Source: Candidatus Fermentibacterota bacterium
GTDB lineage: Bacteria; Fermentibacterota; Fermentibacteria; Fermentibacterales; Fermentibacteraceae
Reading direction: 5' to 3'
NCBI GenBank assembly: GCA_963718745.1
Contig: OY970370.1
Span: 1,547,566 to 1,611,565 of the forward strand
DNA: 64,000 nucleotides
Position numbers and translations under genes: made by a program. The notes under the pieces are model-generated. The model made no database searches. It saw nothing but the letters and a program-made list of their open reading frames with translations, and was not told the origin of the DNA. Of the stretch, positions 820 to 38,891 are shown piece after piece; position 1 is the stretch's first letter, and each line of letters starts with the position of its first letter.

Positions 820-1620
820 TCAGAGGTTGCTGAAGATCGTCAGCCTTGGAATCGGCTGGTACCAGTAGTTGAACTCCAGACCGTAGACGATGCTGTCCGG
901 TGCGATCGTGTCGGCCGGGATCCCGGTGACGTTCATCTTGACGAAGTTCCCGCTCGAAAGTTCGATGAAGAGCCTGTCGCCGTCGATCAGATGAATGGAG
1001 TCGACATACCCGGAGTCGGGCGCGATCCTCGGGTTGTTCCCCTTGGCCATGTCGACATGGCTGCCGTCCCCGAAGGGAGCCAGGTCTCCGGAGTTGAGGC
1101 CGACCGGGCTCTGAGCCCATCCCCCGTCGAAACAGTAAGCATCCTGCAGGAAGGCGGGATCGGATGCCTTGCCGAGAGTGCCGCTCGTTTCGCCGAAGAT
1201 GACGGCATCTAGGCTGTCCGCCGGAGCGTGGTTCGACCAGATGGTGAAGCTGCCGCAGAAGACGGGGTGGGTGTTCGCGTAATCCGAGTAATCCTCCGAA
1301 GTGTCGACCCCGTTGAAGGCAAGGACCGTGTAGTAGCCTGCGCCTCCGTTGCTCCGGAGCGACACGTCGTCGACGTATGTCGTGTCGACTACGTTCACCA
1401 GCTCGTCCCAGGAGCCCGTGGTCTCCGACCAGTAGAGCCTGTAGCCGTCGACGTCGGGAACCGAGTTCCACCTGAGGCTGACCTGCGTTCCCGTACAGAG
1501 GCTTTCCACCACTTCGAGGCCTGTAACCTGGGGTAGCGATCCGGTGGGCGACGATGGGTCGCCGCAACCCGGTGCGAGGATCAGTGCGAATGAGACCGAT
1601 GCGAGAACGAGTTTCTTCAT
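820..1620 (-). CDS. hypothetical lipoprotein, possible fibronectin type III-like domain
   Basis: Within ORF 820..2115; start placed at MKKLVLASVSFALILAPGCG (lipoprotein signal) with GGGAGG RBS; the upstream ORF extension is low-complexity. Confidence 0.6.
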   Translation of the reverse strand: MKKLVLASVSFALILAPGCGDPSSPTGSLPQVTGLEVVESLCTGTQVSLRWNSVPDVDGYRLYWSETTGSWDELVNVVDTTYVDDVSLRSNGGAGYYTVLAFNGVDTSEDYSDYANTHPVFCGSFTIWSNHAPADSLDAVIFGETSGTLGKASDPAFLQDAYCFDGGWAQSPVGLNSGDLAPFGDGSHVDMAKGNNPRIAPDSGYVDSIHLIDGDRLFIELSSGNFVKMNVTGIPADTIAPDSIVYGLEFNYWYQPIPRLTIFSNL

Positions 1621-1721
1621 GACCCCTCCCTTGTTCGTGCGTTCGTGAAGATAAAGGATGGCAAGCGTATGCGGGAGTGTTCCGCCGCCCGGCCCTCTCC
1701 GGTCACGCATGGACGGGCTGC

Positions 1722-2522
1722 TCAGGGGTTCGCAGTCCTCGCCAGGCGGAATCCCAGATAGTGCTGATACTCCTCCGGGATCTCGTAGAAGCGATTGGAA
1801 GATGTGCATACTCCCGCGCCCAGGTCGAAGCTCCCGCCTCTGCTTATCCTGAAGGTGTAGCTGTCCTCCTCGATCCAGGCCGAGCCGTCGTCCGGGGCTC
1901 CGGAGTAGTCGGCATGATAGAGATCCTCGCAGAGTTCGATGGCGTTCCCCAGCATGTCGTAGAGTCCCCACGGGTTCGGCTGCAGGCTCCCCGCCGGGTG
2001 CAGCGCGTAGCGGGAGTTGCCGGCGTACCAGCAGTAGAGGGCCATCAGGGCGGGGGAGCCGTCGTCCCCCCAGAAGTACTTCGTCGAGGTTCCGGCTCGG
2101 CAGGCGTATTCCCACTCCGCTTCGCTCGGGAGGCGGTAGGTGTGCTGCGGGTCCAACCTGTTCAGGGTTTCGATGAAGTCATGACAGTCGGCCCAGTCGA
2201 TGTAGTGGACGGGGAACGAGGGGCCGCACCCGTAGAGGCTCCGGCTCGGGTGGGCCCGGTCGCGCTGCTCCTCGATCGTGCGCCCGGTGACGGCCTCCCA
2301 TGCGGCCTGGGTGACCTCCGTGGTCATCATCTCGAAGCTCTCGATCCGGACGGAATGCACGGGCCGCGAGTCTTCGAATGCGTAAGGGGCGTCCGAACCC
2401 ATCATGAAACTGCCCGCCGGGATCGTCACGAACTCCATCCCCAGGTCCGCTGCGACGTCGCCCGCCTCCGCGCCCGTGGTCGCCAGGATCAACGAAGACA
2501 ATAGCATCAGGATCGATTCCAT
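1722..2522 (-). CDS. formylglycine-generating enzyme (FGE/SUMF1) family protein
   Basis: ORF 1722..2552; start at MESILMLL signal; FGE-sulfatase-like motifs (WEYACRAGT, GLYDMLGNAIE, RGGSF). Confidence 0.8.
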   Translation of the reverse strand: MESILMLLSSLILATTGAEAGDVAADLGMEFVTIPAGSFMMGSDAPYAFEDSRPVHSVRIESFEMMTTEVTQAAWEAVTGRTIEEQRDRAHPSRSLYGCGPSFPVHYIDWADCHDFIETLNRLDPQHTYRLPSEAEWEYACRAGTSTKYFWGDDGSPALMALYCWYAGNSRYALHPAGSLQPNPWGLYDMLGNAIELCEDLYHADYSGAPDDGSAWIEEDSYTFRISRGGSFDLGAGVCTSSNRFYEIPEEYQHYLGFRLARTANP

Positions 2523-2601
2523 CTCGTTCCTTCCCGTCCGGTGCGGGCGCATGCCGCTCTCCGATGAAGCCTGGAGGAATATCCGCGCCTCCGCCCCCCG
2601 T

Positions 2602-2630
2602 CACCAGTTCCAGGTTTAAATAAGCTTGAA
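2602..2630. promoter_or_regulatory. conserved 29-bp intergenic motif CACCAGTTCCWGGTTTAAAWWAGCTTGAA (copy 1)
   Basis: Near-identical copy at 43168..43196; contains the CCAG-TTC-CTGG palindrome; sits in the divergent region between the FGE gene and the lipoprotein gene. Confidence 0.35.
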
Positions 2631-2712
2631 TTGGGATTGTTAACGCTAGCGGGAGAAGTTATGCCATCATTCCGTGTTCATCATGGGTAAACGGTCGGAA
2701 TGGAGGTCGAGG

Positions 2713-3651
2713 ATGTCAGGAGGCTCCGATCCAGGTGAAAGGCACGGCCAGGTCCGGATGTCCCGTCAGTCAGGCACCGGCGTTCGCTTCCACGTTGCGC
2801 TCTTCTTCGTCGTTCTCGCAGCCGGCTGCGGAACAGGATCCCCTGGCGGCCCCGGTCCGGAGGAGAACGTCGGCTTCGCCGGCGTGCGCTCCTCCAGCTA
2901 CGGGGTCGATCCCTTCCCGGACCCGGCCGGCTGGGTGGACTGCATCCTCGCCATGTCCGACGCCTTCCCGGGCTCGACGCCGTCCGCCCTCTGGGTTGTG
3001 GGGACGGTCGACGAGGGGATTGGCGGGGTGAACCTGGAGTTCCCGACGCCGGACAGCCTAGTGTATCCGCATGTGAGCTTCTCGGACGAGGACCTGCACG
3101 AGGAGTACCTGGCCTGGTTCGACCAGTGCGGGGTGGAGGTGTTCCTGCAGGTCGAGCCCGGGTACGCGGATGTCGAAACGCTGATCTGCCTGGTCATGCA
3201 GCAGTACGGCGACCATCCCTGCGTCATAGGGTTCGGTGTCGACGTCGAGTGGCTCGGAAACGTCACCGAGGGCGGGGAGGGGACTCCGGTCGGCGATTCG
3301 ACGGCCGCCTCCTGGGAGAGCCTGATACATGGTTTCGATCCGGCGTACGGCCTGTTCCTCAAGCACTGGGACGCTTCGTTCATGCCCCCTTCGTACAGGG
3401 GGAGCATCATCTTCGTGGACGACGGCCAGGGCTACTCAGACATGGGGGCCTACCTGGACGACATGGGGGAGTGGGCGGAGACTTTCGCTCCGAACAGGGT
3501 CTTCTACCAGTACGGATACGAGGCCGACCGGCCCTGGTGGGAGGACCTGGAGTCACCTCCGATCGCCATCGGAGAGGCGCTGGCCGGGCAGACCGCCCAG
3601 GAGTGCGGCCTGTTCTGGGTGGACTTCAACCTATCCGAGCTGCAGCGCTAG
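2713..3651 (+). CDS. hypothetical lipoprotein
   Basis: ORF 2674..3651; ATG at 2713 has a GGAGG RBS; hydrophobic segment VALFFVVLAAGCG with lipobox. The start could also be 2674 or 2758. Confidence 0.6.
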   Translation: MSGGSDPGERHGQVRMSRQSGTGVRFHVALFFVVLAAGCGTGSPGGPGPEENVGFAGVRSSSYGVDPFPDPAGWVDCILAMSDAFPGSTPSALWVVGTVDEGIGGVNLEFPTPDSLVYPHVSFSDEDLHEEYLAWFDQCGVEVFLQVEPGYADVETLICLVMQQYGDHPCVIGFGVDVEWLGNVTEGGEGTPVGDSTAASWESLIHGFDPAYGLFLKHWDASFMPPSYRGSIIFVDDGQGYSDMGAYLDDMGEWAETFAPNRVFYQYGYEADRPWWEDLESPPIAIGEALAGQTAQECGLFWVDFNLSELQR

Positions 3652-4958: not shown

Positions 4959-5783
4959 CTAGCGGACTATCGCGAAAGTCGCCGAATCGAACGACTGCCC
5001 TGTGGATGCCGTGACCACATACGCTCCTGACGGGAGAGGGTTCCCGTCGTTGCCGCGGCCGTCGAAGTCGAAGTAAACCTCTTCTGTCGATGTCTGCACA
5101 CCATCGAGAGTTCGCACGCACCGACCCATGATGTCGATTACTTCGGCACCGACAGCTTCGGCGTCATCTCCACGGTAGCGGAAGACGAACGGGCCGGAGA
5201 TTGAGACCCTGGTTACACTCAGCCCGGCTTCGGAAGCAGGAAGAGGAATCCCGGCTGTAATCTCCGAGCCGTCGGAAAGGTTTTCAGGGAAGAACGGTCT
5301 GTACATGACGTCGTAGTTGGTGTGTCCGCTGCTGAGATAGGCCGCCCCTGCAGCGAAGAAATGCCCCGCCTCCGTGACACAGCCACCCATCTGATCGCAG
5401 GATGGGGCAGTTAATCCGAAGGAGCCCGTGTCGGCGCTTCCGACAAAGGAGTGAGTGAGTTCGAAGTCGTTGTTCAGCCTTCCGATCCAAATATACCATT
5501 CGTCTCCATCTCTTACCATGCCGGAGACCATGTAGCCCGCGGAGAACAGCTCGAAATCGTAGACTCTGATCCCATCGAAGGGATTCGGGGGATAGACTTT
5601 GTAATCCCTAAGGAAGTTCAGCGACTCGTCGAGGATAGTAATCGAGATGTATGCATCTGTATGCTGGAAGATGCCCTCCATGCTCTGAGTGGTGATCGGA
5701 TTGCCCATCACGACATAGCCGGGGGCTCCCGGAAGGGGAAATGATGTTCGATCTCCTGATACTGCTGACGATTGCGGCTTCAC
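4959..5783 (-). CDS. protein with T9SS/FlgD-like C-terminal sorting domain, possibly N-terminally truncated
   Basis: C-terminus EVYFDFDGRGNDGNPLPSGAYVVTASTGQSFDSATFAIVR resembles the Por-secretion C-terminal domain; no signal peptide, and the 5' end overlaps the divergent gene at 5741. Confidence 0.45.
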   Translation of the reverse strand: MKPQSSAVSGDRTSFPLPGAPGYVVMGNPITTQSMEGIFQHTDAYISITILDESLNFLRDYKVYPPNPFDGIRVYDFELFSAGYMVSGMVRDGDEWYIWIGRLNNDFELTHSFVGSADTGSFGLTAPSCDQMGGCVTEAGHFFAAGAAYLSSGHTNYDVMYRPFFPENLSDGSEITAGIPLPASEAGLSVTRVSISGPFVFRYRGDDAEAVGAEVIDIMGRCVRTLDGVQTSTEEVYFDFDGRGNDGNPLPSGAYVVTASTGQSFDSATFAIVR

Positions 5784-7354
5784 CGGTCAGGATTGCAGTC
5801 CTGGGTGACAGGACCGGGGGTCCGGACGACGAGGAATTCGAATCAGCCCTCGAGGCGGTCTCGATACTGGCTCCCGACCTGGTGATGAACGTGGGTGATC
5901 TCATCGACGGCTACACCGACGACACGGACGCCCTCGGCGGGCAGTGGGACCATGTCCTCGGCATGATCGACTCAACCCTGGGCGAACTCCCGTTCGTATT
6001 CGTCCCGGGCAATCACGACATCACCTACGACGAGGCCGAGGCCGTCTGGCTGGAGAGGACCGGGACAGGGCCAGACAGGACCGAATCGACCAGCGGTGTC
6101 GAGTTCATTGTCTGGGACACGTCCAGAGACGAGATCCTGGAGGCTGACGATCTGGACCGTCTCGCCGCCCTTCTCGAGGACGTCCGCCCCGGCGGTACAA
6201 CCATCCTCGCGACCCACAGGCCGTTCTGGATGATGTGGGAGACGGATCCGGAGATGGCTGCGAGGCTTCGCGCCATGGTCGCCGCAGCCGACGTGGAGGT
6301 AGTCATCGGGGGCCATATCCATACTTACGCGTGGGAGCAGGTCGACGGGGTCCACTACATTACGATGGGGACATCCGGAGGCGATTACGGGCAGGAGGAC
6401 ATCCAGGCGGGGTGCTTCCCCCAGGTGGGCTGGCTGACGCTGGACGGCGACGAAGCGGCATTCGCCCTCCTGGACCCCAGGTCGGTCCACCCTCTCGATC
6501 TCAACACTGTCATCGAGGAGACCCTGCTCTATCTCGCTACCACAAGGCTGCTCTCGCTCAGGCCTCTCGAGGATGCGCTCGAATCCGCCTCACTCACGGT
6601 GGAATCGATCGAGGACGTGGAGCGCACGGTCGGGATCGCGATCGACCCCGGTTGCTGGGGCTTCGATCCCGAGAGCGTTTCGGTGCTTCTCCCCCCCGGC
6701 GGTCAGGTGCCGGTGCACTTGAGCCAGAATCCGTCCGGAGCTGTCTTCCCCCTCCCCGTGCTGCACGTGAGCATTCCCTACGGTGACAGGGGCAAGATTG
6801 CGGAGTTCGATACGTGCTGGCCTGCGCTGAGGTCGATCGATGCTCCACGGGGCGTTGTGGATATCGACGGTACTGCTTTCCCGACCGAATACCCGGGTCC
6901 GGCCGAGACGCTGTTCGCAGGAGACGGCGGCATGCCGGCGCAGAACGGTCCAATGGAGGTCCTCATAGCCGATTCGGACGGCATGCTCTGCTTCCAGTCC
7001 AGGATGGGCCTGAGCCCGGACGGTCTGCTGGAGGACGAGTCGTTCGCGGTGGTCCTGTTTGCGGACGGCCTCTTCTGGAGGGTCAAGGTCTTCCCGGACG
7101 GCGGCGTCGATGCGATCTGCTACTCCGATGAAGGCATCGAGGAGTGGACGGAAGGATGGCAGGCCGTCTCGACAGTTTCGGAAGGCGGCTGGGAGGCCGA
7201 GATCGGGATCGACCCCGCTGCCGTCGGAGCTTCGGAGCCGGAGCTGCGCACGCACATCTACCGCCTGTCGACCAATGGGTACGCCACCTGGTCGTGGCCC
7301 CTCGAGTTCGACATGGAGGCTATGGGTCTCGTCTGCACGGAGCCGGGGATCTGA
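5741..7354 (+). CDS. metallophosphoesterase (calcineurin-like) family protein with C-terminal extension
   Basis: Motifs VLGDRTGG, GNHD, GGHIHTY; hydrophobic N-terminus. Confidence 0.75.
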   Translation: MMFDLLILLTIAASPVRIAVLGDRTGGPDDEEFESALEAVSILAPDLVMNVGDLIDGYTDDTDALGGQWDHVLGMIDSTLGELPFVFVPGNHDITYDEAEAVWLERTGTGPDRTESTSGVEFIVWDTSRDEILEADDLDRLAALLEDVRPGGTTILATHRPFWMMWETDPEMAARLRAMVAAADVEVVIGGHIHTYAWEQVDGVHYITMGTSGGDYGQEDIQAGCFPQVGWLTLDGDEAAFALLDPRSVHPLDLNTVIEETLLYLATTRLLSLRPLEDALESASLTVESIEDVERTVGIAIDPGCWGFDPESVSVLLPPGGQVPVHLSQNPSGAVFPLPVLHVSIPYGDRGKIAEFDTCWPALRSIDAPRGVVDIDGTAFPTEYPGPAETLFAGDGGMPAQNGPMEVLIADSDGMLCFQSRMGLSPDGLLEDESFAVVLFADGLFWRVKVFPDGGVDAICYSDEGIEEWTEGWQAVSTVSEGGWEAEIGIDPAAVGASEPELRTHIYRLSTNGYATWSWPLEFDMEAMGLVCTEPGI

Positions 7355-10185: not shown

Positions 10186-11574
10186 ATGATGATCGAATGT
10201 ATCCCACAGACTGGGAGAGTGGATGTGAGAACTTCCGTCTTGTCCTTCCTGGTCGCCCTGGTACCTTTCTCGATGTCTTTCGCGAACGGCGGCCCGATCG
10301 ACGGATCGCGAGTACTCGGCGCGGGAAGCATCGAGATCGCCCCGGTCGACGGTGTGGAGCTGAGATCCGAGGATCTGTCGTTCGTAATCAGAGGCGATTA
10401 CGTCGATGTAGTGGCAGTCTACGAACTGGAGAACACCGGGGCCGCCCGGGATGTGGAGTTCGCGTTCCCCGTGGACTTCGTCACGGACTACGAAGAGGTG
10501 AACTACTTCTCCGAAGACTCGCCCGAGCCGCTCCAGGAGGTCGAGGAATTCTCGATGACGCTGGACGGCGTGCCGCTACGGATAAGCCGCATCGTGGCGG
10601 ACTCCTCCGAGATCGAGCTGGACGAATGGGTCTATACGAGATCCTCCCTCTGGCACGTCGCCACTCTGCCCCTCGAGGACGGAGCGACACAGATGCTCAG
10701 GGTCGGGTACAGCTTCAAGCCCTTCTTCATGGATGCCGCCTTCAGCAAGGGCTGGTTCCCGTACTGGGGGACGAGGAGCTTCACATACAGGCTGGACCCG
10801 GCGGGCGGCTGGGGTGACGGGATCGTGGAGTCTTTCTCGTGCAGGATGGACGTCTCCACGCTCGAGCACTACGGCGACAGCTTCTCCCTTCCCGAAGGCG
10901 GGAGCTGGATCACCCCCGGCGTTTACGGATGGAGCTGGACGGACTGCGATCTGAGCAGCGCCGATCCCCTCCTGATGTCCTACTCGGTCACGAACGCAAA
11001 GAATTCGCGGTTCCTGCTGGATGACCGGCTCGACTCCGCGGACGTCGCAGCCATTCGTTCCTCCTCGGATCTGGCCCCGCAGGACGGCAACACCTACGAT
11101 CCGGGCAACCTCCTCGACATGGACTTCACTACGGCGTGGTGCCCCGGGGGTCCGGCCGGAGGCGTGGGTTCCTGGGTGGAGTTCGACATGGAGCCCTGCC
11201 TCGCAGGCGCAATTCTCATCGGGAACGGCTACACGAAGAGCGCGGAGGCTTACACCGCCAACTCGCGAGCGCGATCCGTCAGGCTGATCCTGACGGGCGA
11301 CCCCGACAACCCGCATGGCTACGGGGACGGCGGCGTGATATTCGACGAGGTGATCAACCTGGAGGACACGCCGTGGGCGGAGCTGGACGAAGGTAACTTC
11401 GCACGCGGTCTGCAAAGGCTCTTCTCGACTGGAGACATGGGCGAGGCAGTGGGCAGGATCCGCCTCGAGATCCTCGAGGTCTACCCCGGGGATGCTTGCG
11501 ATGACCTGTGCATCTCTGAACTTGTAATCGCGGGTTACGACGGGGAGGACTTCGCACGCTGGGAATCCGACTGA
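10186..11574 (+). CDS. hypothetical secreted protein
   Basis: Signal-like N-terminus (VLSFLVALVPFSMSFA); C-terminal region is W/D-rich and may be a carbohydrate-binding-like domain. Confidence 0.6.
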   Translation: MMIECIPQTGRVDVRTSVLSFLVALVPFSMSFANGGPIDGSRVLGAGSIEIAPVDGVELRSEDLSFVIRGDYVDVVAVYELENTGAARDVEFAFPVDFVTDYEEVNYFSEDSPEPLQEVEEFSMTLDGVPLRISRIVADSSEIELDEWVYTRSSLWHVATLPLEDGATQMLRVGYSFKPFFMDAAFSKGWFPYWGTRSFTYRLDPAGGWGDGIVESFSCRMDVSTLEHYGDSFSLPEGGSWITPGVYGWSWTDCDLSSADPLLMSYSVTNAKNSRFLLDDRLDSADVAAIRSSSDLAPQDGNTYDPGNLLDMDFTTAWCPGGPAGGVGSWVEFDMEPCLAGAILIGNGYTKSAEAYTANSRARSVRLILTGDPDNPHGYGDGGVIFDEVINLEDTPWAELDEGNFARGLQRLFSTGDMGEAVGRIRLEILEVYPGDACDDLCISELVIAGYDGEDFARWESD

Positions 11575-11612: not shown

Positions 11613-12476
11613 GTGATCCTGACGGGGGGCGTGCGGGTGGACGGGACGAGCATGCACGTCCTCTCCGGAGACTCGATCGTTCTGGTGTCGGAGTGCACCT
11701 CGGACTGGTACATCATTCGGCCGGAGCCCGCATCCTACGACCGATTGGAAAGCAGTATTCCGTGCGGAGCCGCGGATACTCTGGCATACACCAGAGTCCT
11801 GCTGTCGGCCGGTGCGTGCAGCCTGGAGACGGTTGCTGGAAGCCTTGCAGGCCCCCTGGGTGCGGGAACCTTCTACATCCAGGCACTTCCCGCCGGGGCT
11901 GCATGCCCGGAGAGCCTGCATTCGACGGAGCCGCCCCATCTTGTGGAACCAGGGATGGTGCAGGTTGCGGTGCGCCCCGGTGACGAGTACGTGGACTTCC
12001 TCATGGAGGCGCTCGGCACGCCGTTCGTGATGATGCCCGGTCGCACGCCCCGGGGCGCCCACCAGGCCGACGACCTCCTGGGTTTCGACTGCGCGGGGCT
12101 CGCCGTCTACGGGGCGCGGAGGCTCGGCCTGGATGTGGAGTACCTCGGGCCGCAGGGGATCATGCGGTATCTCGATCCGGTCGCCTCGGGTCTGTACTCG
12201 CCGGAGCCGGAGGGCGGCCTGTCCGTCTACAGGGATTCCGGAGGCCGGACGGTCGCGGTCGGCGAAGGCGGCCTGGTCACGGGTGACATCCTGCATCAGA
12301 GGACCCAGGTCTCGGTGTTTCTGGAGGACCGCGGGGTGCCGGGCCTGCTCGATTCCGAGGACCTCGTGATCCAGTCCTGGTTCGACGGCCCAATGATCTG
12401 TACGCTGGAGGAGAACGGCTTCTACGGCCTGCCGCTTCGCGTCATGCGCTGGCATGGCATGCCCGCAGCACAGTGA
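11613..12476 (+). CDS. hypothetical protein, weak NlpC/P60-like cysteine peptidase signature
   Basis: GTG start; GFDCAGLAVYGARRLG resembles the NlpC/P60 catalytic Cys region, with downstream His candidates. Confidence 0.45.
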   Translation: MILTGGVRVDGTSMHVLSGDSIVLVSECTSDWYIIRPEPASYDRLESSIPCGAADTLAYTRVLLSAGACSLETVAGSLAGPLGAGTFYIQALPAGAACPESLHSTEPPHLVEPGMVQVAVRPGDEYVDFLMEALGTPFVMMPGRTPRGAHQADDLLGFDCAGLAVYGARRLGLDVEYLGPQGIMRYLDPVASGLYSPEPEGGLSVYRDSGGRTVAVGEGGLVTGDILHQRTQVSVFLEDRGVPGLLDSEDLVIQSWFDGPMICTLEENGFYGLPLRVMRWHGMPAAQ

Positions 12477-12596
12477 TGGAGCAGGATGCCCGGGCGATGA
12501 TGCGGCGCCCGTTCCGCCGCCTGCCCGCCCGTCGACGTCTCGAAGTCGTGGAAGAGGGTCCCGGCGAGGTCTACTCAGGCTCCTGACGATCTCCGA

Positions 12597-15188
12597 TCAT
12601 CTGCCTGATCTCGTCCGCCTTGCTCCGGGTCGACTCGTCGAACTCCCCTCCGAGGATCTCCGTCGCCCTTTCGAGGGACTCCCGGCCTCCGCCCGGCGTC
12701 CAGTGAAGGCGGCAACCTGGGCGAGCACGAGCAGGGCGTGACCCTGCATGCTGGCATGCTCGATGGACTCCGCGATCCGCAGGCATTCCCCGGCCAGCCG
12801 TCCAGCCCTTTCAGGATCCTCCCGGCACAGCAGGTCGGCGATGCCCAGGAGCGACAGCTCCTCGGCCCTCCTGTCGCCCACTTCCCTCGCGATTTCGAGG
12901 GATTCCTCCAGGCAGGCGAGCGCGCGGGCGTCCTCGCCGGCGTGGATGAGCATGAAGCCCATGCTGCCGAGGGTCCGCATCTGCATGATGATGTCTCCCT
13001 GGATCCTGGCGTGGTCGAGAGCCTTCCCGTAGTGCTCCACGCCCTTCATCAGGTTGCCGCCGATCGCCTCGAGCGTGGCCAGGTTGGTGAGCGCGACTGC
13101 TATCTGCCTGTGATCCCCGATCTCCTCGACCGTGGCCAGCATCCTCTCGAAGAATCTCCTGGCTGCATCGTGCCGGCCCCCCTGCGCCTCCATGACTCCC
13201 AGCGTGCCGAGTATCCTGGGCTCGAGGTCCTTCTCCCCGGAGCCCGCTGCCAGGGTCAGGGCCTCTTCGAGCAGCAGCCGGGAATCCTCCGCCCGGCCGG
13301 CAAGCTGCAGGAAGGTCGCCATCCTCTCCATCACGTTCGCCAGCAACCCGGACCTATCGGGCTGCAGATCCCGTCCCCACCTCGACCTGAAGATCTCGAG
13401 CTTCTCGCCGAAGACCTGCAGGGCGAGGCCTGTTGTGCTCCGCACGATGAAGATCTGGCTCAGCGCGATCAGGAAGCCGCGCGTCTCGGCTGGCGGCCAC
13501 AGCCTCGCGGCCCGGTCCCACGCCTGGAGGAGGTTGGGCAGAGCCGTCTCGATCTGCTTCAGGACCTCCGCCGAACCGGCCCGGTTGATGTCCTGTCTGG
13601 CCTGCTCCAGCCAGGCGGCGAAGTGGCGGGCATGCCTCTCCGACAGTTCCTCCCGCCTGCCGGGGTCGTTCGACAGCTTTTCCGCGGCATATGCGTGGAC
13701 GATGGGGTGCATGAGGAACCTGCCGGGGGAGGGGCAGTTGAGCAGCGACCTGTCGAGGAGGCTCCGAAGGTTGCGAAGACCGCAGTCCGCCACCGCCGAG
13801 GCAGCCGGAGGATCGAACTCCCCCGCGAAGATCGACAGTCCGGATAGAGCACGCCTGCCTTCCTCGTCGAGCAGTTTCCAGGAATACTCGAAGACGGCCT
13901 CGAGCCCCCGATGCCTTCCCGGCATGTCCAGGGGAGCGGAGTCGAGCAGCTCGAAGCTGCGCGCCAGCTCGGAGACGATATCCGCCGGCGGGACCATCCG
14001 GACCCAGGAGGAGGCGAGCTCGATGCCCAGCGGGCTGCCCTCCAGCATTCTGCAGATGGAGGCTATTGCAGGCCTGTCCGCCCGCGAGGCATCCCAGCCG
14101 GGGTCCGCCCTGCGGGCCGATGCGAGGAAGAGATCCGACGCGTCGCAGCCCTCGAGGTCGGATCCGTCCGGCGCCGGAAGGTCCATCCCGCGCAGCACGA
14201 AAACCCTCTCCTCGCGGATGTCGAGCCTGTGACGGGAGGTGACCAGCAGCTTCAGCCCCGGGCTCCTGGAGAGCAGGCGCGAGAGGACCGGCGAGTCCTG
14301 CGACAGATGCTCGAAGTTGTCGGCGACGACGAGCACTTCTCTGTCGGCGAGGAACGAGGCCAGCTGGTCCTCCTCGGAGGAGGTTCCGGAGAACCTGAGG
14401 GACATTGCAGAGGCCACAGCGGCGGGGATCATGGAAGCGGAGGGGATGTCCTCGAGGCGCACGAAGAAGGCTCCGTGCCTGAAGCCAGTTATGGCGCGAG
14501 CAGCAGACTGCAGCGCCAGGCGGCTCTTACCCGTGCCGCCGGGGGCGAGTATCGTGAGCAGCCTGCAGCTTGGGTCCTCGAGCTGTGCGCAGATCTCGTC
14601 CAGCTCTCTCGCGCGGCCGACGAATGGCGTCGGCTGTGGCGGTAGGTTCTGAGGGCGGCTGGAGACCGTCCGCAGGGCGGGGAACTCCGATCTGAGTGAC
14701 GGGTGGGTCAGGATGTGGATCTGCTGAGGCTCCATCAGGTCGCGAAGAATGTGCAGACCGGCATCCAGGAGCGATGCTCCGGCGGGAAGCACTTCGGTTC
14801 GACCTGCCTCATCGTTGGCCAGGACCTGCCCGCCCCATGCCGCCGAAAGCATGCGGGCGGCGCCGTTCATGACAGGGCCGAAGTAGTCGTCGCCCCTTCG
14901 CTCGGCCTCCCCTGCGAACGCGCACATCCTGACGTTGAGTCCCCCGACCCCGGACCAGTCCCCGGCCTGCAGGGCGACCTGGGCATGGATGGCGCATTCC
15001 AGGGCCCGGCCATTGTCGAAGACGGCGATGATGCCGTCACCCGTGTGCTTGACGATCCTGCCGCCGTGGAGGGCTGCCGATTCCCGCAGGATGGAGTCGT
15101 GGCGGCAGAGGGCGGCCGACATGGCGTCGGGTGCGCTCTCCCACCTGGCGGTCGAGCCTTCGATGTCGGTGAACAGGAACGTGGGCAT
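12597..15188 (-). CDS. adenylate/guanylate cyclase domain protein with AAA-type P-loop ATPase and TPR repeats
   Basis: N-terminal class III cyclase motifs (FLFTDIEGSTARWE, HGGRIVKHTGDGIIAVF); P-loop APGGTGKSRLA; alpha-helical repeat C-terminus. Confidence 0.8.
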   Translation of the reverse strand: MPTFLFTDIEGSTARWESAPDAMSAALCRHDSILRESAALHGGRIVKHTGDGIIAVFDNGRALECAIHAQVALQAGDWSGVGGLNVRMCAFAGEAERRGDDYFGPVMNGAARMLSAAWGGQVLANDEAGRTEVLPAGASLLDAGLHILRDLMEPQQIHILTHPSLRSEFPALRTVSSRPQNLPPQPTPFVGRARELDEICAQLEDPSCRLLTILAPGGTGKSRLALQSAARAITGFRHGAFFVRLEDIPSASMIPAAVASAMSLRFSGTSSEEDQLASFLADREVLVVADNFEHLSQDSPVLSRLLSRSPGLKLLVTSRHRLDIREERVFVLRGMDLPAPDGSDLEGCDASDLFLASARRADPGWDASRADRPAIASICRMLEGSPLGIELASSWVRMVPPADIVSELARSFELLDSAPLDMPGRHRGLEAVFEYSWKLLDEEGRRALSGLSIFAGEFDPPAASAVADCGLRNLRSLLDRSLLNCPSPGRFLMHPIVHAYAAEKLSNDPGRREELSERHARHFAAWLEQARQDINRAGSAEVLKQIETALPNLLQAWDRAARLWPPAETRGFLIALSQIFIVRSTTGLALQVFGEKLEIFRSRWGRDLQPDRSGLLANVMERMATFLQLAGRAEDSRLLLEEALTLAAGSGEKDLEPRILGTLGVMEAQGGRHDAARRFFERMLATVEEIGDHRQIAVALTNLATLEAIGGNLMKGVEHYGKALDHARIQGDIIMQMRTLGSMGFMLIHAGEDARALACLEESLEIAREVGDRRAEELSLLGIADLLCREDPERAGRLAGECLRIAESIEHASMQGHALLVLAQVAAFTGRRAEAGSPSKGRRRSSEGSSTSRPGARRTRSGR

Positions 15189-15600
15189 CGTCAGCCACCT
15201 TCCCCGATGCGGAGGCCGGTCTCTCCGGCCGCAAGATTATGGCGCAGGGCAGGGAGCCCTGTCCCGTTCTGTCGATCCAGCCGGGCGGGTCGTCGCTGGG
15301 GCCTCGCAGCTTCCGGTCGGACCCCCTAGTCATCCGGGCAGTGAAGAGCGCTCCGGTCAGGTTTCGAACAGCCAGCCTCTGAACGTGTTCACTCTGTCAG
15401 ATGTCCCGGGTTTCTCCCGGTCGGAGAGGCGGAAGCCGGAGGGGTTCGAACAGCGGAATCCAGGAGGACGGATATCTTGAATTGGAACATCATGCTGGTT
15501 GCAGGATAAATAGATGCACGAATGGCCTGACCGGCCGTCGGAGTCGCAGGGGATGGGTGTCCATGGCCGCAGAGGGTGCAACTGTAGAGGGGAGTTTCAA

Positions 15601-16263
15601 ATGCGCCTGATGTTCCGTACTCTGTCAGCCCTGGTTATCGTGGCTCTGGGATGCGGGGATTCCCCGTCCGGGCCGGATGATCCGGGTTATCCAGTCTGGA
15701 TGCCGATGAATGAATCCGAGCAGTGGCTCTATGAAGCTTCGGGTTACATGGTCCAGGAGGGCGACACCCTCGATGCTTCGGGGCTTTTCATTATCGACTA
15801 CAAGCAGGAGGTGATGCACTCGCTCGGATTCCCCGTAGTGGAGATCGAGGAGGTGGACAGCACCGTCTTCACACCCCGGAAAGGTGGAGAGACTCTCCGT
15901 GGGAGCAGAGGATGGACCTTCTACAGACGCCTTACCGATGACATGCTCCGGCTGTACTACAATCTGGAAGCCGACAGTGGAATGGTGGAGCTCGTCCTGC
16001 CTCTCGTCGTGGGGGACCAGTGGGAACTGTGCTTCCCCGGATTGCCCGGCGTCACACAAGTCCGCGAAGTCATCAGCCTTACTGATTCGGTCTCGGTCCC
16101 GTTCGGCGATTTTACTGACTGTGCGCACGTACGTGCGAGCGACGGCCTGAGCCTGACCGGGGACTTCTGGTATGCGGACAGCGTAGGGCTCGTGAGATGG
16201 ACCGTCCAGGAGGCCGGTGTAGACATGATGTTCGAACGAATTCCACAGCCTTCGGTTGAATAG
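15601..16263 (+). CDS. hypothetical lipoprotein
   Basis: Internal start MRLMFRTLSALVIVALGCG (lipobox) with GAGGGGAG RBS; upstream part of ORF 15514 is not protein-like. Confidence 0.6.
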   Translation: MRLMFRTLSALVIVALGCGDSPSGPDDPGYPVWMPMNESEQWLYEASGYMVQEGDTLDASGLFIIDYKQEVMHSLGFPVVEIEEVDSTVFTPRKGGETLRGSRGWTFYRRLTDDMLRLYYNLEADSGMVELVLPLVVGDQWELCFPGLPGVTQVREVISLTDSVSVPFGDFTDCAHVRASDGLSLTGDFWYADSVGLVRWTVQEAGVDMMFERIPQPSVE

Positions 16264-16667
16264 GCGCGTCCTCGGGCCGACCCCGTAGCACCTCGCCCCA
16301 CGCGTCAGCTGAAAAAGTACAGGGATGCGGGGTCCGCTCCGGCGGGCCCCGCATCCATCTGTGAAACGGTTGCTGGAAGCTCACCAGCCTGATCCATCGA
16401 GGTCTTCCGACCATCAATCCAGCCTGCTTGTCGCCAACTGCCCCCCGGGGCAACGCATTCCCCGCTGATCAAAGAGCGAGTATTCGATGGGAGCACCATG
16501 TCGGACGGACTCTGTGTCCCGAGTTGCTGGTTTCCTCCTGTCTGACTCCCCCGGATGTCTTCATAATCATGCTGGAAACCGATTCGGGCGCGTGGACGGC
16601 CAGGATGGTCATCCTGAGAAATGCGGCACCATGCACACGGTGCCCGAGTCCCCGGAGGGGAGGAACG

Positions 16668-18578
16668 ATGAGATACCTTCTGCTGCCGGTCATCTGCGCG
16701 CTGCCGTGCTTCTCCGCGGAGCTCCTGTTCCGCAGCCAGGAAGCAATGCCGGACGCCGAGATCCTCGCTTCGGATGCGAGCTCGGTTACCTTGTGCTTCA
16801 ACCTCCCCGCCCTCACCGGATCCGATGCTTTGGTCGACGGTTTCGGCACCGGCACCTGCCTGCGCGTGCCGGGCTGGGGAATGCTGGCCGAAGCGGGCTG
16901 CCCCGACCTGCCGGTGCTCAGGAAGCTCGTCATGGTCCCGGACATCGGGGGGGTGAGCCTCGAGGTGATGGAGGAGACCACCGCGAGCCTGGGTGTGTTC
17001 ACGATACCGCCATTCCAGCATCCACCCCTCAGATCCGGTGAGACTCAGCCGTTCGAGCAGGACCCGGCGATCTATGGTTCGGAAGGTCCTTTTCCTTCCG
17101 AGTGTGCACTGCTGGAAGGCGTTCACGTGCTGAGGGACCTCAGGGTTGCGACGGTCAGGTTCAATCCCGTGAGGTACGACCCACGGACGGGTGAGGTCAC
17201 TCTGGTGACTTCGGCCACTGTCAGGCTGACGTTCGGGGGATCAGGGGAGAACGAGTTGTCGCGAAACTTCACGGGCACCACCCCCGGTTTCCTCCCGGTG
17301 TACGAGGAGGTCCTGGGGTTCGAACCCTCGGGTCCCTTCCTCGACGGCTGCTACCTGTTCATCGGCACCGAGGAGAGCCTCGAAGCGATCGAGGCGCTGA
17401 TCGACTGGAAGAGACAGCGGGGCTACAGGGTGGAACTGGCACAGGTGCCGAACATGGGAACGACAGCCGAAGAGGTCGACGACTGGATCGAGCTTGCCTA
17501 CGCGATCTGGTCGTGCCCGCCCGAGTGGATCCTCATCGCAGGCGGCGAAGACCTCGTGCCGGTGCCGCTGTACGAGGGATTCGCATCCGACAACGTCTAC
17601 GGCGTCATCGGCACAGGGACCAGCGTGCCATCGATACATGTCGGGAGGATCACCGGGTCCATGGAGGACCTCCAGTACCAGGCCTGGAAGATCCGCAGCC
17701 ACGAGGCCGACCCGTACGAGCCGGCAGGCGTGAACTGGCTGCAGAGGACCGTGGTCATCGGCTCGAGCGACGGGCTGGATCCGCTGCACTCCTGGGAGCA
17801 TGCTCAGATCTTCATGCAGCACGGTTTGTCCGTGGATTACTACTGCGACAGCCCCGCGTACGGCGGGGCGCCTCCGGACAAGGCGGCCATCGCGGCGAAC
17901 ATCGACGAGGGAAGGACGATCGTAGACTACATCGGCCACGGGTGGAGCGAAGGCTGGGGCACCTCGGGGTTCTCCTCGACCGACGTGGCAGCCCTTTCGA
18001 ACGGCCGCATGCTCCCCTGGGTGAACTCGATAGCCTGCAGCAACGCGGAGTTCATGTACGGGTACTGCTTCGGAGAAGCCTGGATGACCGAGGGAGACAT
18101 GGTCGACCCCAGGGGCGGGCTCGGTTTCATGGGGGCGACGACGGGCAGCCCCTTCGGCCCGACGGATTCACTGGCGGAGTACACGTGGCGCGGCTACTTC
18201 GAACTCGATATCCATCACATGGGAGCGGCAGTCGACTACGGGAAGCTGAAGGTCGAGGAGTTCTACGGCGGCGGCGGCTGGGCAAACAACATGATGCACA
18301 TGGTGTTCGGATGCCCCGAGGTCGACGTCTATGGCGACACTTCCCCCATCCCCGTCCTGGCATCTGACCACAGCGGGTACATCTGGAGCGGACCGTGGCC
18401 GGTATACGTCACCTCCGAGGGCGATGGTCCCGTCGAAAACGCGATGGTGGGCGTGGTTCAGGGCGACGAACTGCTCGGAGCCGGATACACCGACAGCAAT
18501 GGCTTCCTGCAGCTGGACATCCCGGAACTGCCCTACGGATCTTCCGATGGAGGCCACCATCACTGTCACTGCTCATAA
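16668..18578 (+). CDS. peptidase C25 (gingipain-like) family protein, catalytic region
   Basis: Start MRYLLLPVICALPCFSA (signal) with GGAGGGGAGG RBS; conserved His/Cys regions (IDYIGHGWSEGWG, VNSIACSNAEF); reading frame ends abruptly at 18578. Confidence 0.8.
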   Translation: MRYLLLPVICALPCFSAELLFRSQEAMPDAEILASDASSVTLCFNLPALTGSDALVDGFGTGTCLRVPGWGMLAEAGCPDLPVLRKLVMVPDIGGVSLEVMEETTASLGVFTIPPFQHPPLRSGETQPFEQDPAIYGSEGPFPSECALLEGVHVLRDLRVATVRFNPVRYDPRTGEVTLVTSATVRLTFGGSGENELSRNFTGTTPGFLPVYEEVLGFEPSGPFLDGCYLFIGTEESLEAIEALIDWKRQRGYRVELAQVPNMGTTAEEVDDWIELAYAIWSCPPEWILIAGGEDLVPVPLYEGFASDNVYGVIGTGTSVPSIHVGRITGSMEDLQYQAWKIRSHEADPYEPAGVNWLQRTVVIGSSDGLDPLHSWEHAQIFMQHGLSVDYYCDSPAYGGAPPDKAAIAANIDEGRTIVDYIGHGWSEGWGTSGFSSTDVAALSNGRMLPWVNSIACSNAEFMYGYCFGEAWMTEGDMVDPRGGLGFMGATTGSPFGPTDSLAEYTWRGYFELDIHHMGAAVDYGKLKVEEFYGGGGWANNMMHMVFGCPEVDVYGDTSPIPVLASDHSGYIWSGPWPVYVTSEGDGPVENAMVGVVQGDELLGAGYTDSNGFLQLDIPELPYGSSDGGHHHCHCS

Positions 18579-21934: not shown

Positions 21935-23755
21935 CTACTCCACCACCACGACGCGTCTCGCGGTCTCGAACTCCCCGGCCTGCATCCTTACGAAGTAGAC
22001 GCCCGGGGGATGCTCGCCCAGTCCAACCTGCGAATAGCCGGGCTGGTATTCGATCGAACCCGTCGATTCCGCAACCCTGCCCGCGATGTCCAGAACGGTC
22101 AGAGTCACCATGGAAGGCTCGGGAATGCCGATCGTGACGAGCAGGGGCCCGGAGACGGGATTGGACACGAAGGGCATCAGCTCGAAACCGCCGGGCATCT
22201 CCGGCCCCTCCGTGCCGAGCGGGTTCCAGGAGACCGTTACGTCGAGCAGAGCGGGGCTGGCGCCGGGATCGTCCGTCGTCATCACGGACCTGTACTGGAA
22301 GTAGTTCGCTCCCTCAGGAAGCACGCCCGCGAGACTGCACGGGTCATCGAGAATGGCCGACCACGCCCCCATCTCGTCGGAATCGTCCGAAGCGCGCACC
22401 TGGAAGGAAATGTCGGTCTGGGAGGGAGAGTCTTCAGTCCATGTCAGACCTCCCCAGCCCGGATCGCCCTGCAGGTATAGGATGCTGGATTCCAGGACCG
22501 CCTCGTTCACATGGATGTCCCACCAGCGGAAGAAGTGCAGGTCCGGCTCGAAGCTGGTCCCCAGGATGTCCATCCAGCCGTCGCCGTCCACGTCACCCGG
22601 GATGATGCAGTCGGCAGTGTTGTACTCCCCGATGTCGCAGACCGTGTGCTCCTCCCAGTCCGTCCCCAGTCCGTCGGAGTTCTCGATCCAGATGTACTGT
22701 CCGCCAAGCCCCGTTGTGACCAGGATGTCGCTGTCTCCGTCCCGGTCGAGATCGCCGGACCCGAGGCCCCAGCAGCAATCGGAATAGGCTGCAACTACGT
22801 GCTTGGTCCAGTCCGAACCCGTGCCGCTCAGGTTCTCCCACCACGAGACGGCGTCCGAGTCAGTACCTGAACCGAGGACGTCGAGATCCCCGTCTCCGTC
22901 GAAATCGGCCGCATGGACGGAGAACGAGCTGTTGTAGCCGTCATCTATGGCGGCCATGGTCCAGGTCGTCCCGAGACCGTCGGTGTTCTCGAGCCAGAAC
23001 ACGCCGTACTCGGCTGAACCTGCGGCAATGATGTCCAGATCTCCGTCTCCGTCCAGATCGCCGGGATGCACACCGTGGTAGGAACTGCTGAGCCCCGTAT
23101 CGATCTCATGTTCGAGCCAGTCGGAGCCGTCCCCCTCGACGTTCTCCCACCAGTACCAGTACAGGCCGAAGACGTCTGCGCAGACGATGTCGATGTCTCC
23201 ATCCCCGTCGAAGTCCCCCGTGCACGGGGTCACTGGCATCTCTGGAGCGGCGCTGATCGAACAACCGATCCATAGAGTCCCCTGGCCGTCCACGTTCTCG
23301 AACCAGGAGACCAGGTCCTGGGCTGCGACGAAGTCGGTGTCGCCGTCGCCGTCGATGTCGCTCGCGCAGATGTATCCGCCGGTTGCAGCTGCTATAAAGT
23401 GAATCGTCCAGTCGGTGCCCGTGCCGTCGTTGTTCTCCCACCAGCAGACGGTGGAGGAGCTGCTCGCAACGACGTCCAGGTCCCCGTCGCCGTCCATGTC
23501 GGCAGCATCCAGGTATTCGGGCTCGAAGATGTCGTCGATGGTGTTCTCGTACTCTCCAGGGAGGATCCCGACCTGCCCGGCGGGAGACGACCACGACGCT
23601 CCGGCGCATTCGTAGAATTCTCCACCCCATGCCGTTACCGGCCCCTGAGTCCCGGGGCCGCCGGCCCAGTCGGTCTGGCTTTCGCTGTCGGCATGGCAGA
23701 CGGAAACTGTAATCAGAAGGGCTATGAGGAGGAAGAGTCGCTGCATCCGGACCAC
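21935..23755 (-). CDS. FG-GAP/VCBS repeat protein with T9SS C-terminal sorting domain
   Basis: Signal peptide; repeated DxDGDGDxD calcium-binding-like motifs; C-terminus TLTVLDIAGRVAE...PGVYFVRMQAGEFETARRVVVVE. Confidence 0.8.
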   Translation of the reverse strand: MVRMQRLFLLIALLITVSVCHADSESQTDWAGGPGTQGPVTAWGGEFYECAGASWSSPAGQVGILPGEYENTIDDIFEPEYLDAADMDGDGDLDVVASSSSTVCWWENNDGTGTDWTIHFIAAATGGYICASDIDGDGDTDFVAAQDLVSWFENVDGQGTLWIGCSISAAPEMPVTPCTGDFDGDGDIDIVCADVFGLYWYWWENVEGDGSDWLEHEIDTGLSSSYHGVHPGDLDGDGDLDIIAAGSAEYGVFWLENTDGLGTTWTMAAIDDGYNSSFSVHAADFDGDGDLDVLGSGTDSDAVSWWENLSGTGSDWTKHVVAAYSDCCWGLGSGDLDRDGDSDILVTTGLGGQYIWIENSDGLGTDWEEHTVCDIGEYNTADCIIPGDVDGDGWMDILGTSFEPDLHFFRWWDIHVNEAVLESSILYLQGDPGWGGLTWTEDSPSQTDISFQVRASDDSDEMGAWSAILDDPCSLAGVLPEGANYFQYRSVMTTDDPGASPALLDVTVSWNPLGTEGPEMPGGFELMPFVSNPVSGPLLVTIGIPEPSMVTLTVLDIAGRVAESTGSIEYQPGYSQVGLGEHPPGVYFVRMQAGEFETARRVVVVE

Positions 23756-29654: not shown

Positions 29655-29730
29655 TGGCGGTCCCACGGGGAATCGAACCCCGGTTTGATGGCTGAGAACC
29701 ACCCGTCCTAGACCTCTAGACGATGGGACC
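29655..29730 (-). tRNA. tRNA-Glu (anticodon CUC)
   Basis: Revcomp GGTCCCATCGTCTAGAGGTCTAGGACGGGTGGTTCTCAGCCATCAAACCGGGGTTCGATTCCCCGTGGGACCGCCA; cloverleaf with TTCTCAG anticodon loop; CCA encoded. Confidence 0.9.
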
Positions 29731-35936: not shown

Positions 35937-37409
35937 CTAGAGGTCATGTCCGCAGTAGGACAGGTTGAAGCTCTTGTTGCACAGGGGGAAGTCCGAGATC
36001 TGCTGCCCGCGGAGCGCGCAGGCCAGCCCGAACCAGTTCCGGAACGAGGGATCCACGACCTTGCAGCGGCTGAAACCCCCGCGGTCGTCCGTGATCAGGA
36101 CATGGCAGATCTCTCCGCGCCAGCCCTCCGCCAGGGAGACCGCCATCCCGTTCCGCGGCAGCGCGCCCGTATCGACATGGACCGGGCCGTCCGGGAGGCT
36201 TCCGAGCTGTTCCAGGATGAATGCGGCCGATCTCTGTACCTCCATCCACCGGACGAGGGCGCGGGCGAAGACGTCACCCGAATCCCAGACCGAGAGCGGG
36301 ATGTGGGACATCCGGTAGATGCCCGAAGGGAAGTCACGGCGCACGTCCTTCTCGAGCCCGCTGGCCCTGGCGGCCGGTCCGGAAAGGCCGATGGACGCCG
36401 CGAGGCCGGCGGGAACGGTCCCGGTGCCCTCGAACCGCGACAGGACGGAAGGGGTCTCCCACAGCAGGCCCACGGCCCCCTCTGCGTCCCGGAGCGCCGT
36501 CCTGAGCCTGTCCGAGAGGTCCCGCGCCGTCTCCCCGTCGATGTCCCGGGCCAGGCCTCCCGGCCGGAGCAGCCCCCGGCCGAACCTGTTGCCGCACATG
36601 CCCGCCGTTATGTTGAGGACATCCCCCCTGATCCTCCCGCAGTACGACATGGTGGGGAGGAAACCGACGTCGCCCGCCATCGCGCCCAGGTCGCCTACGT
36701 GGTTGGCCATCCTCTCCAGCTCGAGCGCCACGCCCCGGAGGACCTGCGCCCTCGCAGGGACGTCCGTTCCGCACAGAGCCTCGAATGCCGAGCAGTACGC
36801 GGTCGCATGGCCGATGGAGGTGTCTCCCGCGATCGTCTCGACGATGCGGAGCCTCCGGTAGTCCGGCCTGCCCTTCAGCGCCTCCTCGACTCCCCTGTGC
36901 TGGTATCCGAGGGCGATCTCGAGGTGATAAACCGTCTCGCCGTGGCACAGGAACCTGAAGTGGCCGGGCTCGATCACGCCCGCGTGCACGGGGCCGACGG
37001 CGACTTCGTGGATCTCCGCGCCCCTTATCCTGAAGAAGTTGTTCGTCTCCGCAGAAGGCGGGCCGGGGGGGTACCTGACCGGTTTCAACCACGGGTGCCC
37101 CCTGAACTCGATCCCGTACCCCTCGGCGGCCTCGCGCTCGAACATCTGCGCCTGCGGGCAGTCGGGCACCAGCGAGTCCATCCCGCCCGAGGGGCGGGTG
37201 GAGAATACCGAGATCTGGCCGGTGCCAGGCTTCGACATCACCGCGTACATCGTCAGGCTGTCCTGGAGCCGGCATGCGAAGAGCGCGGAAATGGCCGCCC
37301 CGCCCTGCACCGAATCCAGAACGCCCTGCCTGAACTCCGCCCTTGTGAGGAGGGGGATCTCGGCGAGCGGCACGGGTCCTCCGCCCTGGAACAGCGCTGT
37401 GCGTGTCAC
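35937..37409 (-). CDS. NuoC/NuoD-fusion large subunit (HycE-like) lacking NiFe-ligating CxxC motifs
   Basis: C-terminal 490 aa of ORF 35937..38888; GTG start overlaps the stop of the upstream gene; NuoC-like (YAVMS...ISVFSTR...FEREAAEGYGIEFRGHP) then NuoD-like domain; the L1 position reads TIAGDTSIGH and the C-terminus is NLSYCGHDL. Confidence 0.8.
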   Translation of the reverse strand: MTRTALFQGGGPVPLAEIPLLTRAEFRQGVLDSVQGGAAISALFACRLQDSLTMYAVMSKPGTGQISVFSTRPSGGMDSLVPDCPQAQMFEREAAEGYGIEFRGHPWLKPVRYPPGPPSAETNNFFRIRGAEIHEVAVGPVHAGVIEPGHFRFLCHGETVYHLEIALGYQHRGVEEALKGRPDYRRLRIVETIAGDTSIGHATAYCSAFEALCGTDVPARAQVLRGVALELERMANHVGDLGAMAGDVGFLPTMSYCGRIRGDVLNITAGMCGNRFGRGLLRPGGLARDIDGETARDLSDRLRTALRDAEGAVGLLWETPSVLSRFEGTGTVPAGLAASIGLSGPAARASGLEKDVRRDFPSGIYRMSHIPLSVWDSGDVFARALVRWMEVQRSAAFILEQLGSLPDGPVHVDTGALPRNGMAVSLAEGWRGEICHVLITDDRGGFSRCKVVDPSFRNWFGLACALRGQQISDFPLCNKSFNLSYCGHDL

Positions 37410-38888: not shown

Positions 38889-38891
38889 GCG

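Follow-up and report, generated by a model that had tools for sequence, protein, structure and literature searches.

What does a nucleotide cyclase do at the head of a protein whose remainder resembles an NLR-type receptor? The question is raised by a gene on the minus strand of a 64,000-nucleotide stretch of the genome of a Candidatus Fermentibacterota bacterium (contig OY970370.1, positions 1,547,566 to 1,611,565; hereafter the window, with position 1 as its first letter). We conclude that the product of this gene is probably a signal-gated adenylate cyclase of the cytoplasm that has an NLR-like (STAND) protein as its chassis, with the cyclase as output, a nucleotide-binding oligomerisation domain (NOD) as switch, and an arm plus a tetratricopeptide repeat (TPR) array as sensor. 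An initial annotation, made from the letters alone, had described an N-terminal class III cyclase fused to a P-loop NTPase and a long TPR array in a STAND-like arrangement, and both the identity and the order of these parts were borne out. As it stands in the window, the ATG-to-stop open reading frame (ORF) encodes 863 amino acids (aa) and is identical to a public database protein (P0001), whose contig measures 2.52 Mb; with one base restored near its 3' end, as argued below, the product has 872 aa. The parts of the gene, with the evidence on which each was placed, are as follows.

12571-15188, minus strand: full gene with one base restored, 872-aa product
12597-15188, minus strand: ORF as deposited, 863 aa, identical to P0001
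14694-15188, minus strand: class III cyclase catalytic domain, residues 1-165 (phmmer against the PDB, Foldseek, model confidence)
15150-15173, minus strand: FTDIEGST motif with the first metal-binding Asp, D8 (alignment conservation)
15033-15050, minus strand: KHTGDG motif with K47 and D51 (alignment conservation, pairing with Ma1120)
14853-14891, minus strand: DDYFGPVMNGAAR motif with D101, N108 and R112 (alignment conservation, pairing with Ma1120)
14604-14693, minus strand: conserved linker ahead of the P-loop, residues 166-195, ...NLPPQPTPFVGRARE (mean identity 62%)
14184-14603, minus strand: STAND nucleotide-binding domain (NBD), residues 196-335 (motifs, match to NCBIfam AfsR)
14523-14546, minus strand: Walker A, APGGTGKS, residues 215-222
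14307-14333, minus strand: Walker B, LVVADNFEH (DNFEH), residues 286-294
14232-14240, minus strand: TSR motif
13659-14183, minus strand: helical and winged-helix domains (HD and WHD) of the NOD, residues 336-510 (model, fold match)
14019-14039, minus strand: GxP motif, GSPLGIE
13704-13712, minus strand: MHD-like motif, MHP
12690-13658, minus strand: arm and TPR sensor array, residues 511 to about 833, about eight helical hairpins (TPR_12, model helices, Foldseek)
12676-12699, minus strand: interval of the 1-nt deletion, with 12684-12688 as its best placement (DNA alignment to the orthologue at locus L010)
12571-12686, minus strand: true C-terminal coding sequence (capping helix), put out of frame by the deletion, with its conserved TAG stop

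The N-terminal domain was recognised as a class III cyclase by sequence and by fold. Residues 1-183 retrieved from the PDB (phmmer) the Mycobacterium avium cyclase Ma1120 (1.7e-13), the trypanosome GRESAG4 cyclases (5e-12) and Rv1900c of Mycobacterium tuberculosis (3.6e-7), and the corresponding domain of an AlphaFold2 model superposed on the catalytic domains of Ma1120 and Rv1900c with a template modelling (TM) score of 0.85-0.90 and a root mean square deviation of 1.8-2.5 Å (Foldseek, PDB). Confidence in this part of the model was high, the predicted local distance difference test (pLDDT) reaching 94-98 across most of the domain and 84-91 at residues 141-165. Residue conservation was counted over alignment A1, which comprises the window protein and 119 homologues (120 sequences). 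All six canonical class III positions are present and are 91-100% conserved: the metal-binding residues D8 (117/117 ungapped sequences) and D51 (119/119), the substrate residues K47 (119/119) and D101 (120/120), and, within the MNGAAR motif, the transition-state residues N108 (109/120) and R112 (119/120). The phmmer alignment pairs K47, D101, N108 and R112 with K101, D157, A164 and R168 of Ma1120, of which the first two are substrate-specifying, A164 occupies the usual site of the transition-state Asn and R168 is the transition-state Arg (PMC4215837). The K/D pair is conserved throughout adenylyl cyclases, guanylate cyclases having Glu together with Cys/Ser/Thr/Gly or similar residues at these positions (PMC4215837). 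Since the window protein has the K47/D101 pair, its predicted substrate is ATP and its predicted product cyclic AMP (cAMP), and the domain is predicted to be both active and ATP-specific. We therefore rejected the reading of a degenerate cyclase, as the full catalytic set is present and nearly invariant: neither the metal-binding Asp pair (D8, D51) nor the transition-state pair (N108, R112), the loss of which the initial annotation had named as decisive, has disappeared.

Downstream of the cyclase, the hallmarks of a STAND NTPase follow in order. The Walker A lysine K221 and the Walker B aspartate D290 (in DNFEH) are invariant (120/120 each), as is P386 of the GxP motif (G384-x-P386; 120/120), and the sensor-1-like Arg of the TSR motif, R319, is kept in 116 of the 120 sequences. 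The NOD-arm region of the NCBIfam AfsR model aligns with residues 170-578 at 9.4e-22. The Pfam evidence was marginal here: AAA_16 (20.8 bits) and nSTAND_NTPase5 (19.9 bits) both scored under their cutoffs, and the window protein had no match to NB-ARC (PF00931) at threshold, a family that is listed for many homologues, often marked as weak. Because a phmmer search of the NOD region alone against the PDB returned no matches, the NOD was placed by fold search, in which it also matched the plant NLRs Roq1 and RPP1 and a wheat resistosome (Foldseek). The window protein carries an MHD-like His (H494, in MHP); in NB-ARC proteins the MHD His stabilises the ADP-bound state. By motif, profile and fold, the central module is an NB-ARC/AfsR-like STAND NOD with intact NTPase motifs.

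The C-terminal array gave the one strong Pfam signal obtained for the single sequence (TPR_12, 2.9e-18), and the fold search matched it to the sensor of 6MFV and to the TPR of LGN (Foldseek). The AlphaFold2 model, built from 120 homologues, had a mean pLDDT of 89.2, and its best whole-chain match in the PDB was 6MFV, the STAND-TPR protein PH0952 (E = 4.3e-15 over 664 columns; Foldseek). Conservation is distributed very unevenly along the chain: mean identity is 21-25% in the arm and TPR array vs 45-62% in the cyclase, linker and NBD, the linker being the most conserved segment of the family and the arm with the TPR array the fastest-evolving. The clade to which the window protein belongs (863-882 aa) has a TPR array that falls ~100 residues short of the family median.

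The end of this array is where the deposited gene model fails. The tail of the annotated ORF (...AEAGSPSKGRRRSSEGSSTSRPGARRTRSGR, then stop) is Arg/Ser-rich, with pLDDT <50 for residues 837-863, and another frame of the same DNA gives ...ESLERATEILGGEFDESTRSKADEIRQMIGDRQEPE followed by a stop, which matches the way in which P0002, an orthologue of 80% identity, ends (...REFLERATGILGEDMDESARSKEAEIMSMIEEGQEPG). The DNA alignment with the orthologue locus L010 contains one 1-nt gap, on the window side (GGCGGA-GGCCGGG vs GGTGGATGCCCGGG), and the TAG at 12571-12573 aligns with the orthologue's stop. Addition of one base anywhere in 12676-12699 yields a single 872-aa ORF with the orthologue-like ending, and 872 aa is the exact length of the orthologues P0002 and P0004. 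On this alignment, a 1-nt deletion close to 12684-12688 has created the annotated end at 12597, which is artefactual. The ORF that the initial annotation delimited at 12597-15188 is thus present, and its 3' end is what has to be revised: the C-terminal ~30 residues are frameshifted and stand in place of the final ~40, which form the terminal capping helix, and the stop belongs at 12571-12573. The missing base may reflect either a fault of the assembly or a mild lesion of the gene.

It could also be taken as the mark of a decaying pseudogene, the frameshift being real, the function destroyed and the locus without a current role in this genome. The Arg/Ser-rich tail of low pLDDT left by the deletion would fit such decay, as would the presence of the same 863-aa product in the deposited record, and the window shows no pervasive frame breaks of the kind that would suggest an error-prone assembly (none was found elsewhere in it, only ordinary operon overlaps). 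However, the damage is confined to the final ~40 of 872 residues, and everything up to residue ~833, including the catalytic, NTPase and TPR elements, is intact and free of other stops or frameshifts. Single-base indels within G/C runs are, moreover, typical consensus errors, and the out-of-frame 3' sequence is still orthologue-like up to the conserved stop, so that the deletion must be either very recent or a sequencing error. We consider a pseudogene unlikely.

The corrected C-terminus bears on a further point of the initial annotation, which held that proteins of this architecture usually end in a DNA-binding domain that is absent here. The absence stands: no helix-turn-helix (HTH) or other DNA-binding domain was found in the window protein with Pfam or NCBIfam, and the frame-corrected protein stops about 40 residues past the last TPR, at the conserved stop. 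The word 'usually' does not, as it fits the mycobacterial Rv0386-type LuxR fusions and not the family at hand. In the precomputed domain lists of 120 listed homologues (735-1247 aa, median 974), most combine PF00211 with NB-ARC or AAA_16 and with TPR families, and LuxR/GerE, Trans_reg_C/OmpR-type and BTAD domains occur in none (0/120), which makes the lack of a DNA-binding domain normal here. The family is very large. A search with the whole protein gave >3,400 significant matches among the scored candidates, and an exhaustive search with residues 1-335 (cyclase, linker and NBD) gave 8,956 clusters (50% identity) at E <= 1e-30; the best 150 of these clusters all match at E <= 1e-74, nearly all of them spanning the whole query. 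Named sources include Fermentibacteraceae/Fermentibacteria, Aegiribacteria, WOR-3, Fraserbacteria and Anaerolineae, and several members carry the JGI name 'predicted ATPase/class 3 adenylate cyclase'. By these domain lists and searches the architecture is common and already catalogued in uncultured bacteria, with a TPR ending as the family's normal state. We know of no member of the exact cyclase-NOD-TPR architecture that has been characterised biochemically. Some distant members occur as tandem paralogue pairs (~1010 and 979 aa), each partner having cyclase, NOD and TPR, at two loci:

L014, 2939-5977 and 6001-8940: tandem paralogue pair
L015, 4934-7966 and 8001-10940: tandem paralogue pair

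These pairs suggest a lineage-specific expansion of the family; in the window itself, tblastn found no paralogue of the gene.

Among the closest described systems are Rv0386, Rv1358 and Rv2488c of Mycobacterium tuberculosis, which likewise have an N-terminal class III cyclase, a STAND-type P-loop ATPase and TPR-like repeats (bioRxiv 10.1101/2024.03.06.583649). Proteins of this type end in a LuxR-type HTH and are longer (1085 aa in Rv0386), whereas the window protein and the 120 listed homologues lack an HTH. The cyclase domain of Rv0386 is enzymatically active, and work by Castro et al. in 2005 reportedly assigned its substrate selection to a Gln/Asn pair, not Lys/Asp; from such a pair the window protein differs in its canonical K47/D101. 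The order NOD, arm, TPR is common to PH0952 of Pyrococcus horikoshii (6MFV), MalT and AfsR, although the sequence identity of the window protein to 6MFV is only 17%, and the effector differs in each case: an ArsR-like DNA-binding domain in PH0952, LuxR in MalT, SARP in AfsR and a cyclase enzyme here. The closest solved cyclase domains, Ma1120 and Rv1900c (28-29% identity), are of the same compact ~165-residue type but, unlike that of the window protein, occur without a fused STAND-TPR module; Ma1120 shares the K/D substrate pair and has an Ala at the transition-state Asn position, where the window protein keeps N108. Avs proteins follow the same logic of an N-terminal effector, a STAND NTPase, a C-terminal TPR-like sensor and activation by oligomerisation (PMC13581612). 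As effectors they use nucleases, proteases, SIR2 and similar domains, and the window protein has no PADLOC Avs match and no defence-like context. With PycC of Pycsar the window protein has a class III-type cyclase fold in common, together with a weak PADLOC match; Pycsar is, however, a two-gene operon of cyclase and effector, whereas the window gene has no adjacent effector or cyclic nucleotide monophosphate (cNMP)-binding domain in the surveyed neighbourhoods, and its cyclase, unlike PycC, is fused to STAND-TPR and has purine/ATP-type K/D residues. On sequence and fold, the window protein combines a Ma1120-like cyclase with a PH0952/AfsR-like STAND-TPR switch and falls outside the Rv0386 type, the modelled Avs families and Pycsar.

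How such a combination might work can be proposed by analogy with the STAND regulators, from which the autoinhibition and oligomerisation steps are borrowed (PMC6468293). In the PH0952 fold the ADP-bound state is autoinhibited through NBD-arm and NBD-TPR contacts, and multimerisation is driven by the inducer (PMC6468293). At rest, the NOD of the window protein would hold ADP and be clamped by the arm and TPR array, leaving the protein monomeric. The active sites of class III cyclases form at the dimer interface, and for this reason the resting cyclase would be inactive. Binding of a ligand to the TPR array, whether a protein, a peptide or a small molecule, would release the clamp; the NOD would exchange ADP for ATP and then oligomerise; and the cyclase domains would be brought together as catalytic dimers that convert ATP to cAMP, to be sensed by receptors encoded elsewhere in the genome. 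The product, the ligand and the logic of autoinhibition and oligomerisation are what we infer here from the anatomy of the protein. On these terms the cyclase-ATPase-TPR protein may act as a signalling hub, as initially suggested. The outputs known so far for the induced-proximity switch of NLR and STAND proteins are nucleases, proteases, NADases and transcription factors. If the mechanism holds, that switch can also directly drive a second-messenger enzyme, and the gating of dimerisation-dependent class III cyclases by intracellular ligands would be explained.

Several observations count against a signal-gated adenylate cyclase. The match to Pfam Guanylate_cyc (PF00211) reached 20.4 bits vs a gathering cutoff of 21.9 and covered residues 3-62 only, and the clade P0001-P0009 lacks a precomputed PF00211 match, which is present in most listed homologues from P0010 onward; given the fold and the catalytic residues, the sub-cutoff score reflects a divergent clade, and the domain annotation, marginal by Pfam, was settled by phmmer against the PDB and by fold. 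The MHD pattern is matched by just 37 of 116 family members, the rest having Phe, Leu, Gln or similar residues at the position of the His. The predicted TM score of the model (pTM, 0.59) makes the relative arrangement of its domains unreliable, so that the model is silent on autoinhibition. In this genome, the cap at the end of the TPR array could be compromised by the frameshift. Finally, the window yielded neither a cAMP receptor nor a phosphodiesterase; the metallophosphoesterase encoded at 5741-7354 was dropped as a CpdA/Rv0805-type cAMP phosphodiesterase for want of an NCBIfam or PDB sequence match.

Genomic context was compared across eight loci, namely the window and L009, L010, L011, L012, L013, L014 and L015, as the initial annotation had proposed. 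In the window the downstream neighbour is convergent (11613-12476, plus strand) and the upstream neighbour divergent (15514-16263, plus strand), both without a family match. At the locus of the 80%-identical orthologue (L010) the downstream genes are common to both, comprising a ~280-aa protein, a NADase-type glycan-binding protein and, farther away, a Metallophos gene, and the upstream genes differ from those of the window. Around the genes of the 78% and 49% relatives, and of four members farther removed, the neighbourhood is unrelated and encodes, for example, transporters, secreted peptidases and metabolic enzymes. No conserved partner, be it a cNMP-binding effector, a phosphodiesterase or a defence gene, was found across the eight loci, nor was a TIR or patatin effector or a mobile-element gene beside the cyclase gene in any of them. 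The gene is a stand-alone unit without a conserved operon partner. Upstream of its ATG, a consensus search gave two weak matches, an RBS-like (ribosome-binding site) GGGGAAGGTGG immediately ahead of the start codon and the following element.

15236-15265, minus strand: sigma-70-like promoter candidate, ~48 nt ahead of the ATG (weak, by consensus match only)

This context also weighs on an immune role, in which the protein would be an Avs-like, NLR-type receptor of anti-phage or other conflict systems, its TPR array sensing an invader protein and its cyclic-nucleotide alarm triggering an abortive-infection effector encoded elsewhere. The effector-NOD-TPR layout is that of Avs proteins, which oligomerise upon binding phage proteins (PMC13581612), and cNMP cyclase domains have been catalogued among the effector modules of bacterial conflict systems (PMC7159879); the fast-evolving sensor region and the tandem paralogue pairs at L014 and L015 would fit a role of this kind too. 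Against it, PADLOC assigned the protein to no defence system, its matches being limited to a generic TPR model and PycC (15.5 bits, E = 0.0021), the latter a weak point in favour of immunity, and nine neighbour proteins gave no defence match save one marginal hit to PDC-S10 (3.8e-4). The transporters, secreted peptidases and metabolic genes of the eight loci, with neither effectors nor mobile-element genes among them, point the same way, as does the K/D pair, which indicates ordinary cAMP and not a dedicated immune nucleotide; the text of a 2026 STAND survey does not mention cyclase effectors. An Avs-like receptor is accordingly improbable. Extended to the whole family, the idea becomes that of a large class of bacterial NLR-like receptors with a cyclic-nucleotide output (a 'cyclase resistosome'), whose TPR arrays would recognise phage or inter-bacterial proteins and whose cNMP alarm would reach unlinked effectors, and this we regard as a long shot.

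That the cyclase-like domain makes no cAMP at all, and either produces another nucleotide (cGMP, or cCMP/cUMP as in Pycsar) or serves as a nucleotide-binding or dimerisation module only, is very unlikely: the sub-threshold Pfam score, the weak PycC match, an Arg (R149) at the gamma-phosphate position that is Lys in 98 of the 120 sequences, and the example of Ma1120, in which canonical residues are not always optimal (PMC4215837), can be cited for it, but a strongly conserved full canonical set is hard to square with an inactive domain, the K47 and D101 pair is the ATP-specifying one, unlike that of guanylate cyclases (PMC4215837), and the closest solved structures are all adenylyl cyclases.

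For the signal-gated adenylate cyclase that we favour, the locus yields a gene model corrected to 872 aa, with its stop at 12571-12573, and the prediction of an ATP-specific cyclase. It adds one member to a widespread, automatically annotated architecture, and the ligand and the oligomerisation-gated cyclase make a modest question; as the family is very large in little-studied lineages, work on one intact orthologue would annotate thousands of genes.

Several neighbouring features were recorded alongside. The calcineurin-like metallophosphoesterase gene (537 aa; 5741-7354, plus strand) is syntenic with a 600-aa Metallophos gene of L010, and at L012 a Metallophos gene sits two genes from the cyclase gene. 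The gene at 10186-11574 (plus strand; 462 aa) encodes a C-terminal NADase-type glycan-binding domain (F5/8 type C / discoidin; Pfam 7.5e-21, NCBIfam 2.8e-25) and adjoins that of the 287-aa protein without a family match at 11613-12476 (plus strand); the pair is conserved beside the L010 orthologue. Four loci without other synteny each have a gene for a gingipain-like C25 peptidase, in many cases bearing a Por_Secre_tail (cargo of the type IX secretion system, T9SS), within ~1-5 kb of the cyclase-STAND-TPR gene:

Window, 16428-18578, plus strand: peptidase C25 gene
L012, 11538-13805: peptidase C25 gene
L014, 12896-14940: peptidase C25 gene
L015, 14830-17835: peptidase C25 gene

As L014 and L015 are mutually syntenic, this adjacency amounts to about three independent contexts, and it may simply follow from the frequency of C25 genes in FCB-group genomes. 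Farther along the window, a 606-aa FG-GAP repeat protein is encoded at 21935-23755 (minus strand; FG-GAP_3 at 8.4e-46), and close to the L010 orthologue (1216-3024) there is a comparable FG-GAP protein that carries a Por_Secre_tail. The segment 24001-30000 has a GC content of 0.57 vs 0.60-0.69 elsewhere in the window, with a tRNA gene (29658-29730, minus strand) at its edge, and could be horizontally acquired. An unusually high AT skew (+0.20 to +0.23) was seen at 38001-42000, over the minus-strand ORFs 35937-38888, 39533-40453 and 40467-42455. Rfam searches of the whole window at the gathering threshold returned three tRNA genes only, the one just mentioned and those at 43867-43956 (minus strand) and 62077-62150 (plus strand).

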